Shown: positions 16,825 through 28,581, numbered from the stretch's first letter. The stretch: 64,000 nt of DNA from Nitrososphaeria archaeon (GCA_050011875.1 JBEKIG010000004.1:32001-96000), one strand, 5' to 3'. Notes: a model not told the origin generated them from the letters alone. Program-made: numbers and translations.

Positions 16825-16900
16825 GCTGACCAGAGCATCAAGCTGATTAACAAAGCGATTTCAGCTTTAATTTACTTGTAAATAATGAACAGAGAAGAAT

Positions 16901-16921
16901 TGGTGCGGGCCCGGTGAGATT
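16901..16921 (-). repeat. Isolated tRNA 3'-end fragment (att-like scar)
   Basis: The - strand reads AATCTCACCGGGCCCGCACCA; 15 of 16 bases match tRNA-Arg 23641-23656 (AATCCCACCGGGCCCG). Confidence 0.6.
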
Positions 16922-23111: not shown

Positions 23112-23581
23112 TTAGGTCAGAGATTTCGTGAAGAATGCTTTATCGCCGTACTTATACTTATAATGGTAGTTATATTTTTGTAGTTTTGCCATTACATTTT
23201 CTTTTTTTAGATACATCTTCCTGTTTTACGGAACAATTAATTTTGAATTCTGTTCCTTTAACCTTTTTAGAATTTTAACTTGTTATTGTTTTTTTAGTTG
23301 CAGAAAAGTTTAAACTACGTCAACGGCTCTTTTGATTCTTCGACTCCATCGCCTTTCTTGTCCAATTTTTTTGAGGAAAGCTTTGGCTTTCCCTGGACAA
23401 CTCCATACCCTAACAGAACCGGTTCTTATCTAGCAACCTCTTTGATCTGGATTACTCCATATTTATATTTCGAGGCTTCATCCTTTAATATCACCTTGAG
23501 TACCCTGTCCAAAGGACTTTCACCCTTAAGGTTCTCCAGCACCCAATAAAGCTGCCTTCCAGACATGTAATCGATTATGAT

Positions 23582-23656
23582 GGGCTCGTGGCTCAGTCTG
23601 GATAGAGTACAGGCCCTCTAAGCCTGGGGTCGTGGGTTCAAATCCCACCGGGCCCG
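23582..23656 (+). tRNA. tRNA-Arg (anticodon TCT), intronless
   Basis: Acceptor stem GGGCTCG/CGGGCCC, anticodon arm CAGGC-CCTCTAA-GCCTG, T arm GTGGG-TTCAAAT-CCCAC. Confidence 0.95.
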
Positions 23657-23810
23657 AACCCAATTATTCTCTGTTAATTATTTACCAGTAAATTAATGCT
23701 AAAATCCCACATTAATTGGAAGCATTAGATGGCAAAGATCCAATAAAAATTGGGTCCGGTTCGCTCAATGCACTCACAAACTAACTAAGAAAGACTTTCC
23801 ATCTTTATAG

Positions 23811-24130
23811 AAACTTTACCTATTTTGTTAAGGTTTCCTTTACCTATTTTGTTAAGGAAAAAATGCTGAACAGACTTTGATAAATTCTGTTCAAACAGAT
23901 ATTTTTTAACAAAATTAGTGCTAACCGTCCGCTGACTTGCTCGAACAGATCCCCCTATGTTCAAATGATTATCACTTTGCTCTCATGCAGAGCGCATTTA
24001 ACTTGAGCAGATAAAAAAAGTTAGCGCTAAATATTTTTCCGAAAAATCAGTTGAACAGAACACAATTGCACACAAATGACCTGTTGTAAAACCTTAACAG
24101 ATCCGGTAAAGGTTATTTTAAAGTGAACTT
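23811..24130 (+). ncRNA. Long-hairpin structured unit A (putative ncRNA or folded ssDNA)
   Basis: Nested stems 23885-23894/24051-24060, 23915-23925/24020-24030 and 23937-23944/24003-24010, plus a terminal inverted repeat; diverged paralogue of unit B. Confidence 0.6.
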
Positions 24131-24393
24131 CAAAAAAATGCGTACATCAAAAATAGACAGAAAGAACTTCCGGCTACATGTTCGAGAAGAAGGAGCTATT
24201 CTGAAAAATTGATAAGGGGATCTGAAATAAAAAGCGACAGTACCTTACTTAGATCAAAGGGGCAATCATTTTACTAAACCTTTTTAGCGAACCCCCATAA
24301 GTTGGAGCCTTCTTCCAGTTAAAATCATAGCGATAGGTTTTTGCAAAACTTCCCCTAACGTCAAGCCGGGAACAGCATCTACCTACATTTAAC

Positions 24394-24714
24394 AAACCTT
24401 TACCGATTTTGTTAAGGTTTCCTTTACATATTTTGTCAATGAAAAATCCGCTGATAATCGTGGATAAAGTTTGCTCATGCAGATATTTTTTTGAACAATT
24501 AGCGCAGACGGTCTGCTGATTTGCTCGGACAGATCCCCCTGTGTATTATTTGTTATCATATTGCTCCCATGCAGGACGGTTTTAAGTTGAGCAAACAAAA
24601 ACTGTTTGTGCAAACTTTTTTGTCTAAAAATCAACTGAGCAAACTATTTTTGCACCTAGTTGATTGAACGTTGTGCATTAACAGATTTCGTAAAGGTTCT
24701 TTGATAGTGAACTT
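24394..24714 (+). ncRNA. Long-hairpin structured unit B (diverged copy of A)
   Basis: Collinear with A; stems such as 24468-24477/24636-24645 keep their pairing through compensatory changes. Confidence 0.6.
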
Positions 24715-24780: not shown

Positions 24781-24832
24781 ATGTTCAAAAAGTGGGTTTA
24801 CGGTCATGACCACAGACATTAATTTTGAACAT
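24781..24832. repeat. 52-bp quasi-palindrome P1
   Basis: ATGTTCAAAA AGTGGGTTTACG GTCATGAC CACAGACATTA ATTTTGAACAT. Confidence 0.85.
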
Positions 24833-25076: not shown

Positions 25077-25128
25077 ATGTTCAAAAATGGTGACTGCTGT
25101 CATGACCGGGGAAGCAGATTTTGAACAT
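25077..25128. repeat. 52-bp quasi-palindrome P2
   Basis: ATGTTCAAAA ATGGTGACTGCT GTCATGAC CGGGGAAGCAG ATTTTGAACAT. Confidence 0.85.
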
Positions 25129-25607: not shown

Positions 25608-25658
25608 ATGTTCAAAATGGTGATTACTGTCATGACTGTGGATACAGATTTTGAACAA
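25608..25658. repeat. 51-bp quasi-palindrome P3
   Basis: ATGTTCAAAA TGGTGATTACT GTCATGAC TGTGGATACAG ATTTTGAACAA. Confidence 0.85.
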
Positions 25659-26375: not shown

Positions 26376-26427
26376 ATGTTAAGAAAAGGAGAGTGTCGTC
26401 ATGACCGCAGGCAACGATTTTGAACAT
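26376..26427. repeat. 52-bp quasi-palindrome P4 overlapping the RBS and start of the topoisomerase-like gene
   Basis: ATGTTAAGAA AAGGAGAGTGTC GTCATGAC CGCAGGCAACG ATTTTGAACAT; ATG 26401 lies in the central GTCATGAC. Confidence 0.8.
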
Positions 26428-28581
26428 GATGATGACATCACGAACAAAATCAGAGCACGGCCACGGATCTACGATTTTTTCACTCTCGATGGCGTGCAGC
26501 GGCTTACCGGGTGCACACCAGAAAAATTCCTCTTGTTCATGTCAAAGGAATTAACCGATAACGCCCTCGATAAACGGAATGTAAAGAATGTCAAGGTCGA
26601 GATCGTTGAAGAAGGCAAAATATTGATTCTGTCAGTATCTGATGACGGAAAACCAACGTTTGATAGTGAATCTCTGACTAAGATCCTAGACTTTGAGAAA
26701 GCGCCCTCCGAGAAAAGAGGAAAAAAGTGTGTAAAAAGAGGAGTACTTGGGAACGCACTACAAAGTTGCTTCGGGATTTCTTATGCAACATTCAACGCAG
26801 ACAACAGACCTGAATACACTGCAGAGGTATGGGGAACCAAAAAATTTTTCATAAAGTTGGATCCCAGTAAGACATCATTTCAAGAAGAACCACGGGAAAA
26901 CGATGGCTTTACAGTCATTCGATTCAAACTACCAACTGGCAATTATGTTTCACCTTTTAGAATTTTAAGAACTATCGCCCTGCTTAACCTCTATGTCACT
27001 ATCTCTTACAAGGATAAAGAATTAGAACACACTTCCGCAGCTTTGGAATGTATCAAACCTCCCATACAAAACGAAGTTGATATACATTGCTATAGTTATG
27101 CAGAATTTAGCGACTTTGTCGATGAGATACAGCATAGTACAGTGGAGCAGTGTGTGACGATCTTCAAAGGCCTAAAGAACCGTTTCTACGCAAAAAAGGT
27201 CCTCGAGGATGCAGGTATTAAGCCTGGAACGAGGCTTTCAGATCTTAGCTCTAAAGAACGTCAATGCCTTTTCAGTACGATAAAAAAGGCTGCGAAGACC
27301 CTAAAAGCCATCCAACTACCTGTAGTCGGCAAAGATTCATTCGAGCAGCATGGTATTGTGAACTACTTTGTAAAGCGTGGTACATTGAGCGATAAAGAGG
27401 GGAGAATCGTGCCCTATGTTGTCGAGGCCGCCTCCTTCGAAGACAAGGATGAAGAGATTTTTGAGACAGTAAACTTCACGACATCGATACATCATCCCTT
27501 CACCATGTACGTTTTCACTGAAGGAGAAAAAAGAGTAAAATTTAGTGATCTCACGAAGGACAAAGGGCTAAACGTGCTTATCCACCTAGTGTGTCCAGCG
27601 ATCACATGGCTCAGCGCAAGCAAGGGCGAAATGGATATTCACCCCTTTCAGGATGCGATATTTTCAGCAATCAGACATGTCTGCAGGCAGAACAAGATGA
27701 CAGGATTTGATTCAGAAACTTTGATTTCACTTACCAACAATGTTATGAGTTCCTACCCGACATTTAACTTTACGCTCAGGCAGGTCTTCTACCTTCTGGT
27801 GTCTCATCACGGTTACCCTAACGAGAAACAAGCCTACAACAAGCTAGGTAAAGCTCTTGTCAAGGCAAGACAAGAAGGGACAGTAGATGCGGATAGAATT
27901 CTGGACTTGAGCAGGCCAGAGTACATAAATAACAGCTCGTATCAATCGTTCCTAGAGCGGGCCCGATCAGACTTCAAGACACTGATTAACGACTTTGATT
28001 TAGATAAATGGAGTCTACAACCGATATACTGTGAAACATGGATAGAAAAGGAGGCCCTCTCCAGAGTCATTGCACCGGTCTGCAAGAAATATAGTGTAAA
28101 CGAAATTGTTGGACGTGGCTATTCATCCTACACACAAATTCGAAGAGCTGTCAAAAGACTTCCAGAGGATAAGAAGGTAATCATACTCTATATTGGCGAC
28201 TTTGACCCGCCTGGACTTCACATAGAAGAGAAGCTAAAAGAAAGGCTCCTTGATGAAGCAAGTAGAAGAGGTAAACACTTACAACTGGATGTGAGGAGGG
28301 TCGCCTTAACCTATGAGCAGATTCAACAGTATCACCTTCCTGCCTCTCCCTTGAAAAAGTCAGGCCAAAAGCGTCAAGAATACCTAGAAAAATATGGAAG
28401 TGACGTATGGGAGGTTGATGCCTTAAGTCCTGAAGTCCTTATAAAAACTTTAGAGGAAGAAATTAGAAGTTTAATCGATTGGGAGATCTGGAACAAAAAA
28501 GAGGAAGAGGTCGAATACTTTAGGGGACTACTAAGAGAAGGCTTGGGACGATTTCTAGACGAACTGAACGCTTTCGAATGA
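26401..28581 (+). CDS. Single-chain type IIB topoisomerase-like protein (Topo VIII-like: GHKL ATPase + transducer + WHD + Toprim)
   Basis: KELTDNALD, VSDDG and GVLGNAL (GHKL); TLRQVFY (catalytic-Tyr WHD); WIEKEAL, GRGYSS and GDFDPPG (Toprim). Confidence 0.8.
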   Translation: MTAGNDFEHDDDITNKIRARPRIYDFFTLDGVQRLTGCTPEKFLLFMSKELTDNALDKRNVKNVKVEIVEEGKILILSVSDDGKPTFDSESLTKILDFEKAPSEKRGKKCVKRGVLGNALQSCFGISYATFNADNRPEYTAEVWGTKKFFIKLDPSKTSFQEEPRENDGFTVIRFKLPTGNYVSPFRILRTIALLNLYVTISYKDKELEHTSAALECIKPPIQNEVDIHCYSYAEFSDFVDEIQHSTVEQCVTIFKGLKNRFYAKKVLEDAGIKPGTRLSDLSSKERQCLFSTIKKAAKTLKAIQLPVVGKDSFEQHGIVNYFVKRGTLSDKEGRIVPYVVEAASFEDKDEEIFETVNFTTSIHHPFTMYVFTEGEKRVKFSDLTKDKGLNVLIHLVCPAITWLSASKGEMDIHPFQDAIFSAIRHVCRQNKMTGFDSETLISLTNNVMSSYPTFNFTLRQVFYLLVSHHGYPNEKQAYNKLGKALVKARQEGTVDADRILDLSRPEYINNSSYQSFLERARSDFKTLINDFDLDKWSLQPIYCETWIEKEALSRVIAPVCKKYSVNEIVGRGYSSYTQIRRAVKRLPEDKKVIILYIGDFDPPGLHIEEKLKERLLDEASRRGKHLQLDVRRVALTYEQIQQYHLPASPLKKSGQKRQEYLEKYGSDVWEVDALSPEVLIKTLEEEIRSLIDWEIWNKKEEEVEYFRGLLREGLGRFLDELNAFE

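Follow-up and report, generated by a model that had tools for sequence, protein, structure and literature searches.

A genus-restricted family of hairpin-forming repeats carried by mobile-type modules in a Nitrososphaeria archaeon

The window analyzed here is a 64,000-nt stretch of a Nitrososphaeria archaeon genome (JBEKIG010000004.1:32001-96000). Its segment 23660-25880 is non-coding, lies just downstream of a tRNA-Arg(TCT) gene and contains two similar units, A and B, that can each be folded into a long imperfect hairpin. The locus raises the question of whether A and B are a pair of dedicated RNA genes or parts of something more widespread, and on which strand, and in which molecule, the fold is kept. 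A preliminary description based on the window had called A and B diverged direct repeats with compensating changes in their stems. It took these changes, together with G:U wobbles working only on the plus strand, as signs of a folded single strand, either RNA or attC-like ssDNA, of a family that it did not recognize.

The two units were direct repeats offset by 584 nt (Table 1), with 73% identity over 193 ungapped nt and 72.8% identity over the 184-nt core. For either unit, 0 of 100 shuffles folded as well as the plus-strand RNA; the minus-strand z-scores were -3.54 (A) and -3.25 (B). The 20-mer that opens the units, CTTTACCTATTTTGTTAAGG, had four matches against 0.00 expected (100 shuffles), and an inverted copy closed each unit. 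The proposed stems were found in A (TTCTGTTCA/TGAACAGAA and GTGCTAAC/GTTAGCGC) and in B (GTTTGCTCA/TGAGCAAAC and GCGCAGAC/GTTTGTGC), and the central motifs CAGATCCCCCT and TTGCTCYCATGCAG were found in A and B alike. This architecture was therefore as the preliminary description had it. Neither unit had coding capacity or contained an ORF of note. Chance or a low-complexity artefact as the source of A and B was ruled out by the folding z-scores, the 20-mer shuffles and the pairing statistics given below.

Between A and B, at 24214-24224, was AAGGGGATCTG, the reverse complement of which matches the first 9 nt of the apical motif CAGATCCCCCT. It belonged to inverted repeat I10 (21 nt, 76% complementary) and was not seen after other copies.

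Table 1. Features of the A/B locus and of the two Topo VIII-like genes (window coordinates unless another locus is named).
Feature	Position	Strand	Details
tRNA-Arg(TCT) gene	23581..23657	+	ARAGORN; Rfam tRNA 62.1 bits; directly upstream of units
att-like repeat, ~66 nt	23645..23710	+	last 12-16 nt of tRNA plus ~54 nt downstream; contains palindrome ATTTACCAGTAAAT
Unit A, long imperfect hairpin	23811..24125	+	MFE -77.2 kcal/mol, z -5.13; core 172.9 bits (covariance model)
Unit A tandem 20-mer boxes (two)	23814..23857 (23814-23833, 23838-23857)	+	exact matches; 7-6-7 design, CTTTACC N6 GTTAAGG
Unit A 184-nt conserved core	23880..24063	+	P1, P2, P3 and apical region with GATCCCCCT, CTCTCATGCA; alignment A3, pair counts
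Unit A closing inverted box	24094..24114	+	inverted repeat I4; outer helix, 19 pairs
5' extension of unit-B module	24240..24394	+	common to other copies C7_38682, C10_87893 and G001 L053 (alignment); left limit approximate
Unit B, long imperfect hairpin	24395..24709	+	MFE -87.9 kcal/mol, z -4.97; core 167.5 bits (covariance model)
Unit B tandem boxes (two)	24398..24441 (24398-24417, 24422-24441)	+	1 mismatch (24398) and 3 mismatches (24422) to 20-mer
Unit B 184-nt conserved core	24464..24647	+	alignment A3
Unit B closing inverted box	24678..24698	+	inverted repeat I9; C-to-A change with G-to-T partner in box 2
Topo VIII-like gene, 726 aa	26401-28581	+	GHKL-type ATPase N-terminus and Top6A/Spo11 Toprim domain
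Sole paralogue of Topo VIII-like gene in G000, 823 aa	L034:8058-10529 = G000 C11:119057-121531	-	ATPase part 33% identical

A and B were not alone. A nhmmer profile built from the two units found 16 loci in the window's own genome (G000; a 2.64-Mb assembly of 119 contigs), and the rebuilt profile gave 15 near-full copies plus fragments on contigs C22, C14 and C2. A covariance model of the 184-nt core (R1) found 15 full plus-strand copies (159-206 bits) and one partial copy in G000, and eight full plus-strand copies (90-200 bits) in the one other genome of the genus (G001). The same model found no copies in eight further genomes of the taxonomic family (68-95% complete) or in 149 other genomes of the class, leaving 2 of 151 genomes positive. 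A blastn search with a 1.2-kb module as query agreed, with 2 of 41 genomes positive.

Motif scans followed by model scoring returned 10 loci from viral contigs, 77 from genome contigs and 12 from metagenome contigs; the first motif in these scans was loose, and the majority of its matches were due to chance. The only bit scores among these public-contig loci were those of G000 or G001 copies and, as a consequence, no independent sequences were gained. Phage and plasmid collections had no blastn match to the repeat. The stretch was present in DNA runs labelled peat metagenome, with no RNA run listed for it, and the DNA contigs from three runs were broken at the repeats and included reads from other copies. 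Overall, A and B are not a private pair but stand in tandem within a non-coding family of about 24 copies that is restricted to the genus.

The copies were carried by modules of ~0.3-1 kb and fell into two subfamilies. Subfamily 1 comprised A, B, C10_87893, C7_38682, C6_79612 and several G001 copies, and ended in the inverted box. Subfamily 2 units were followed by a local hairpin with T runs, a small ORF, a ~250-nt module, conserved and non-coding, that contains a GC hairpin and dyads of the TTTACC..GGTAAA type, and, lastly, one of three alternative continuations. Gene callers elsewhere give the small ORF a 72-aa product; several of the copies here were truncated or stop-bearing.

The orphan 72-aa protein (L033:6498-6713, plus strand, and paralogues) was predicted to form a hydrophilic single helix of 60 residues (pLDDT 92). 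A search of 1.84 billion representative proteins gave only three related clusters, and neither Pfam nor PHROG had a matching family. A type I toxin-antitoxin-like module was weighed against this hydrophilic single-helix ORF without a family, and against the lack of any ORF in A and B, and was rejected.

Twenty copies were folded together with RNAalifold. Three nested helices, of 8 bp (P1), 11 bp (P2) and 10 bp (P3), were obtained together with two short helices; a 58-nt apical region inside P1-P3 carries two conserved motifs. All 20 copies had a core of 183-185 nt, at pairwise identities of 52-93% (median 61%); the flanks of the core, unlike the core itself, contained many indels. Paired cells made up 89.0% of 680 (34 pairs, alignment A3), versus 26.6-40.1% when partners were slid by one to three columns.

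Both sides had changed in 19 of the 34 pairs (shuffles 15.6 ± 1.5; 13 of 500 reached 19). There were 40 further pair types (6 of 500 shuffles had as many), and the covariation score was 0.406 versus 0.188 in shuffles (0 of 500 as high). The counts of both-side changes and of pair types are only moderately significant because the structure came from the same, related sequences: kin sequences can exceed shuffles without any structure, and a structure built from the sequences being scored favours itself. Covariation alone is insufficient here for calling an RNA.

The P2 arms gave a separate line of evidence. In all 20 copies they paired at 8-11 of the 12 positions, and this held for copies with non-palindromic and mutually unrelated arms too. 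In G1_L049, GCAAATTCCAGA was matched with GTTGGAATATTC, and in G1_L061, TTAGCGCAAA was matched with TTTGCGCTAA, despite no shared sequence. Arms of unrelated sequence that still match their own partner offer independent support for the predicted pairing. Additionally, the subfamily-1 consensus fold had an outer helix of 19 bp formed by box 2 and the 3' inverted box; at column 49:286 of this helix, GC was replaced by UA in B and in G001 L061, with box 1 unaltered in both. In an antisense-target search, all 7 of 7 occurrences of the loop motif GATCCCCCTGTG were inside units. Complementarity, length and the two apical motifs are what is conserved across the roughly 24 recombining, moving copies, and the argument that covariation points to a folded single strand was borne out by the wider family, in which complementarity was kept and sequence was not.

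The pairing might in principle need no folded strand at all, if double-stranded protein-binding sites, iterons or operators (e.g., the origin or partition site of an integrated plasmid) contained a word recurring in both directions. Within each unit an 8-9-mer does appear four to six times, its orientation alternating (A, TGAACAGA; B, TGAGCAAAC; subfamily 2, TTGAGCC), the tandem boxes have 24-bp spacing and an inverted copy, many P2 arms are themselves palindromic (e.g., TTAGCGCTAA, TATCGATA and TAACGTTA), and plasmid-type Topo VIII-like genes are nearby. However, there were about 20 diverged arm variants in two genomes and no protein encoded in A or B, and one protein could not read them all; each arm, even where non-palindromic, still matched its own partner, and box 2 and the closing box had changed jointly in both B and G001 L061, leaving box 1 behind. 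A folded single strand is the simplest constraint because one trans-acting protein cannot read 20 different arm sequences. No replication initiator gene was linked to the units, and no replication protein gene was found adjoining them. An array of double-stranded sites is thus the least probable of the readings weighed here. A chromosomal replication origin was set aside, there being about 15 copies and no Orc1/Cdc6 nearby (Pfam scans).

The strand on which the fold is kept was examined through the mismatches. In the consensus structure, A had 27 Watson-Crick, five G:U, no A:C and two other cells, and B had 23 Watson-Crick, five G:U, two A:C and four other cells. Across the family, the 680 cells comprised 540 Watson-Crick, 65 G:U, 34 A:C and 41 other. 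Twenty-eight of the G:U cells were in two near-fixed GG:TT columns at the base of P3 (66:127 and 67:126, with G:U on the plus strand in 11 of 20 and 17 of 20 copies, respectively). With these two columns left out, there were 37 G:U and 34 A:C cells, so that strand-specific tolerance of G:U over A:C in the helices was not found across the family. C10_12121, C11_117987 and G1_L059 leaned the opposite way to A, with A:C over G:U. Folded as RNA, the core had the lower energy on the minus strand in 16 of 20 copies (mean 6.5 kcal/mol).

The observation that wobbles work only on the plus strand was therefore right for A, weaker for B, and did not extend to the family. The plus-strand assignment drawn from it fell to the 37 to 34 count and to the better folding of the minus strand. 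From the preliminary interpretation the folded single strand is retained; the strand is not, and the dispersed family of mobile type had been missed. The mismatches look like unfiltered mutation, a pattern to be expected from strands of equal importance and not from selection on one RNA strand.

These counts bear directly on a structured non-coding RNA gene of ~300 nt, either stand-alone or the leader of the subfamily-2 72-aa ORF, with the fold under selection and the gene carried along by the modules. This reading is ranked second and is possible, though clearly short of probable. It would account for the covariation in three helices, the conserved unpaired motifs, the constant length, the near-fixed GG:UU columns on the plus strand, and the five G:U and no A:C cells of A. 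Unit and small ORF were co-oriented in 8 of 8 copies that keep the ORF sequence. Subfamily 2 has four TTGAGCC/GGCTCAA words whose 1:2, 2:3 and 3:4 pairings compete and are followed by T runs, an attenuator-like arrangement. Its plus-strand core lacks runs of at least five T and is followed by a hairpin and T runs, which would suit a transcript of ~300 nt.

Against an RNA gene, the family showed no wobble excess on either strand, and the minus strand folded better in 16 of 20 cores, yet the wobble counts disfavour that strand. T6-T7 runs occurred within the plus-strand 5' arm of subfamily 1, A and B included, and a conserved archaeal promoter was not seen by eye before the units. Paired columns evolved as fast as unpaired ones (column divergence 0.327 paired, 0.297 apical, 0.348 other unpaired), and the units are exchanged and duplicated like cassettes. 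A scan for bacterial-type promoters and terminators, ill-suited to archaea, gave nothing above shuffles. Equal numbers of G:U and A:C cells could also reflect unfiltered recent mutation in a partly decaying RNA gene family. A more specific proposal is an undescribed archaeal class of ~300-nt structured RNA in mobile modules, with the apical loops GAUCCCCCUGUG and CUCUCAUGCA read by an element or host protein that controls or guides module mobility, copy number or exclusion; this is doubtful, and somewhat more so than an RNA gene in general.

The same mismatch spectrum would also suit a selfish or neutral palindrome whose structure has no function, with templated repair or gene conversion from arm to arm keeping the two sides alike. 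The G:U (37), A:C (34) and other (41) cells resemble raw mutation, substitution rates were similar in paired and unpaired columns, and inter-copy recombination was frequent. Such a palindrome is nevertheless unlikely, if a little less so than an array of double-stranded binding sites. Despite a median identity of 61%, net indels were missing from the core of all 20 copies, next to indel-rich flanks, and its asymmetric apical motifs were conserved. The helices are short (8-11 bp) and split by internal loops, and are therefore poor substrates for templated correction.

Comparison of G000 and G001 revealed differences at several loci with copies. A 931-nt module with the C15 copy (L035:6707-7637) was absent from G001, where the flanks were contiguous. 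Its junction lacked terminal inverted repeats and a clear target-site duplication; at this one clean empty site, at most a 2-nt AT repeat was present at the junctions. At the A/B locus, G001 had a single unit, 77% identical to either A or B, with its 3' box split by a 125-nt insert; around it, adjoining non-coding DNA was 89% and coding DNA 86% identical between the two genomes. A ~600-nt flank, 89% shared, was joined to different unit types in the two genomes: subfamily 2 in G000 (C11), but subfamily 1 in G001. The change of type fell inside the 19 nt of the box. Three other loci had conserved flanks and different cargo in G000 and G001, indicating replacement and not simple insertion.

In subfamily 1 the boxes were internal, with homologous sequence extending beyond them on both sides. 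A simple MITE bounded by the boxes was rejected, as the flanks outside the boxes were homologous between copies. The modules that carry the units are mosaic and recombining, and they bear hallmarks of mobile elements. A and B are best read as copies of a mobile repeat, and not as two dedicated RNA genes.

A second non-coding repeat, R2 (~155-177 nt), was found at L035:6530-6706 (G000 C15:60529-60705) and at five other places. In total, R2 had six matches in G000 (87-100% identity) and at least four in G001. It abutted the C15 module, was 0.9-1.8 kb from the C4 and C14 copies, and its end was exactly where the 931-nt indel starts.

The neighbours of the copies were varied housekeeping genes, and TBP and eRF1 genes, which mark the organism as an archaeon, were on the same contigs. 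In every case seen, tRNA-Arg genes or their 3' fragments preceded co-oriented units by 150-600 nt, at three loci in G000 (window, C7 and C11) and two in G001 (L072 and L093). The ~66-nt att-like repeat occurred in at least eight places in G000, with partial copies at 80-92% identity; its copies included C11:117411, C1:70109, C21:7196 and 10251, and window 16857-16921 (minus strand), and others too. One copy was 570 nt upstream of the C11 unit. In the G001 orthologue of the window locus, the repeat sequence came after a partial tRNA 3' end only, and in G001 L093 a tRNA-like sequence, its anticodon loop read by eye as Arg(CCG), came before the same flank. The ~66-nt repeat looks like an attachment-site scar of elements targeting tRNA-Arg genes. 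An integrated element with a second full tRNA 3' end in the window was rejected: the 28-nt tRNA end occurs there once, although shorter att-like copies exist.

A second tRNA-Arg(TCT) gene was found in G000 C7 (L039:6320-6396), with a unit ~290 nt downstream. A 1.29-kb insert with the unit (L039:6531-7817) began 134 nt past this tRNA; G001 had an unrelated 385 nt between the same flanks.

Genes typical of mobile elements were found near some copies. The ORF at 26401-28581 matched phrog_6247 (E 2.5e-60) and PF21180 (E 2.5e-5). Its paralogue was 0.7 kb from the C11 copy. G000 had no Topo VIII-like genes besides these two, which were 0.7-2.3 kb from units. According to passages of PMC7671362, Topo VIII occurs in mobile elements only, and its archaeal reports are limited to Euryarchaeota. 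An integrase was 3 kb from the C16 copy, with four tyrosine recombinase matches in the genome, and Eco57I-type restriction gene fragments were beside three copies. No integrase was found in window 20-29 kb, and in the neighbour clustering no copy had a transposase within 4 kb.

The motif GTCATGAC-N-ATTTTGAACA spanned the start codon of the Topo VIII-like gene in the window. Three more copies were upstream on the same strand (24803-24831, 25099-25127 and 25629-25657), each opening a short dead-end reading frame (MT..DFEH..). These upstream copies have the look of leftovers from repeated recombination at the gene's 5' end.

Taken together, the reading ranked first, at a probability of roughly 0.4, is that the units belong to non-autonomous mobile or recombining modules whose hairpin core has a cis-acting role as DNA. 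This reading is placed first because of the strand symmetry of the mismatches, the dyad boxes as crossover points, and the links to att-like repeats and mobile-element genes. In the units, one or two 20-bp boxes of 7-6-7 design are followed by the 184-nt core, and an inverted box closes the unit in subfamily 1. On a single strand, box 2 pairs with the 3' box, and the core has P1-P3 nested round the 58-nt apical region.

The folded site would form as a hairpin or cruciform upon strand separation and may serve recombination, mobilisation or replication of the modules; the boxes would be protein-binding or crossover sites. Under this reading both strands would be equivalent, and G:T and A:C mismatches would therefore be equally common. 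The 58-nt non-palindromic centre makes spontaneous cruciform extrusion from the duplex unlikely, and a single-stranded state must therefore be assumed. Against a DNA-level role, no enzyme is tied to the units, and there is one clean junction, without terminal repeats or a clear duplication. The steps from the folded strand to any proposed function are inferred.

No known family matches the repeat. At the gathering threshold, Rfam matched only the tRNA in the window stretch. At E up to 1, segment 23500-26400 gave the tRNA plus three sub-threshold chance matches on the tRNA only, and three subfamily-2 loci gave nothing. A known RNA family was rejected, there being no Rfam match beyond the neighbouring tRNA; in size and level of covariation, the units are nonetheless typical of Rfam families of structured RNA. 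No such element was described in the literature returned by term searches, including passages of PMC6563490 (integrated elements of Thaumarchaeota, with element lists in its supplements) and PMC7671362 (Topo VIII). The covariation persisted when homologues were added, and no known MITE with a cognate transposase and target-site duplications was found. The repeat therefore stands as a new family; if the RNA reading were true, it would be a new RNA family.

Small plasmids have comparable hairpins at single-strand origins and other origins (rolling-circle sso, pRN1-type stem-loops). Like the units, these are long imperfect hairpins of 100-300 nt with conserved loop motifs and linked plasmid-type genes. 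The units differ in having about 15 chromosomal copies, many between housekeeping genes, and no adjoining replication protein gene.

IS200/IS605 elements insert without terminal inverted repeats or target duplication and rely on single-stranded-DNA hairpins, which are short and subterminal. These elements and PATEs share with the modules the lack of terminal repeats and the presence of hairpins, but the hairpin here is ~290 nt and central. Matches in G000 over the family cut-off were one Y1 transposase and four TnpB-type. An IS200/IS605 cluster was found at G000 C4:1-3500 (two TnpB-type genes and one Y1 transposase), with two further TnpB-type genes on C81 and C24. An IS200/IS605 derivative (PATE) was rejected, as blastn of three IS loci versus all unit regions gave no match at E 0.01.

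Integron attC sites are 57-141 bp long, with the core consensus GTTRRRY/RYYYAAC. As in attC sites, whose active form is a folded single DNA strand, structure was conserved here and sequence was not. Units were exchanged like cassettes, and the inner half-sites GTTAAGG and CCTTAAC match the core consensus at 6 of 7 positions. In contrast to attC, units of ~300 nt are two to five times longer, the half-site order is reversed, A and B have no cassette ORF between them, and no integrase was within window 20-29 kb, whereas attC arrays adjoin intI. If a folded single-stranded-DNA site of recombination or replication is the true reading, the repeat would give archaea an equivalent of attC-like or single-strand-origin-like elements.

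Among known kinds, the repeat comes closest in its workings to the hairpin-forming MITEs and small intergenic mobile repeats of prokaryotes, such as ERIC, Correia, Nezha and the Sulfolobus SM MITEs. Unlike in MITEs, the inverted boxes were not at the ends of the mobile segment and flanks beyond them were common to copies. Terminal inverted repeats were not found at mobile-segment ends (the boxes are internal, and the ends of the 931-nt indel are not inverted), and the clean junction showed no clear target-site duplication. No autonomous partner was found among the IS200/IS605 loci (by sequence) or the genes within 4 kb of copies. The constant-length core, the conserved asymmetric apical motifs and the mosaic flanks also set the units apart. 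Shared with MITEs are the small, non-coding nature of the repeat, its many dispersed intergenic copies, the long hairpin of each copy, the division into subfamilies, and presence or absence that varies among close relatives. With 24 copies in two genomes, the repeat is a compact model of long-kept complementarity in an archaeal element that is mobile and non-coding. In a little-studied peat archaeal lineage it marks hot spots of recombination by tRNA-Arg genes, and it has a tie to Topo VIII-like genes.
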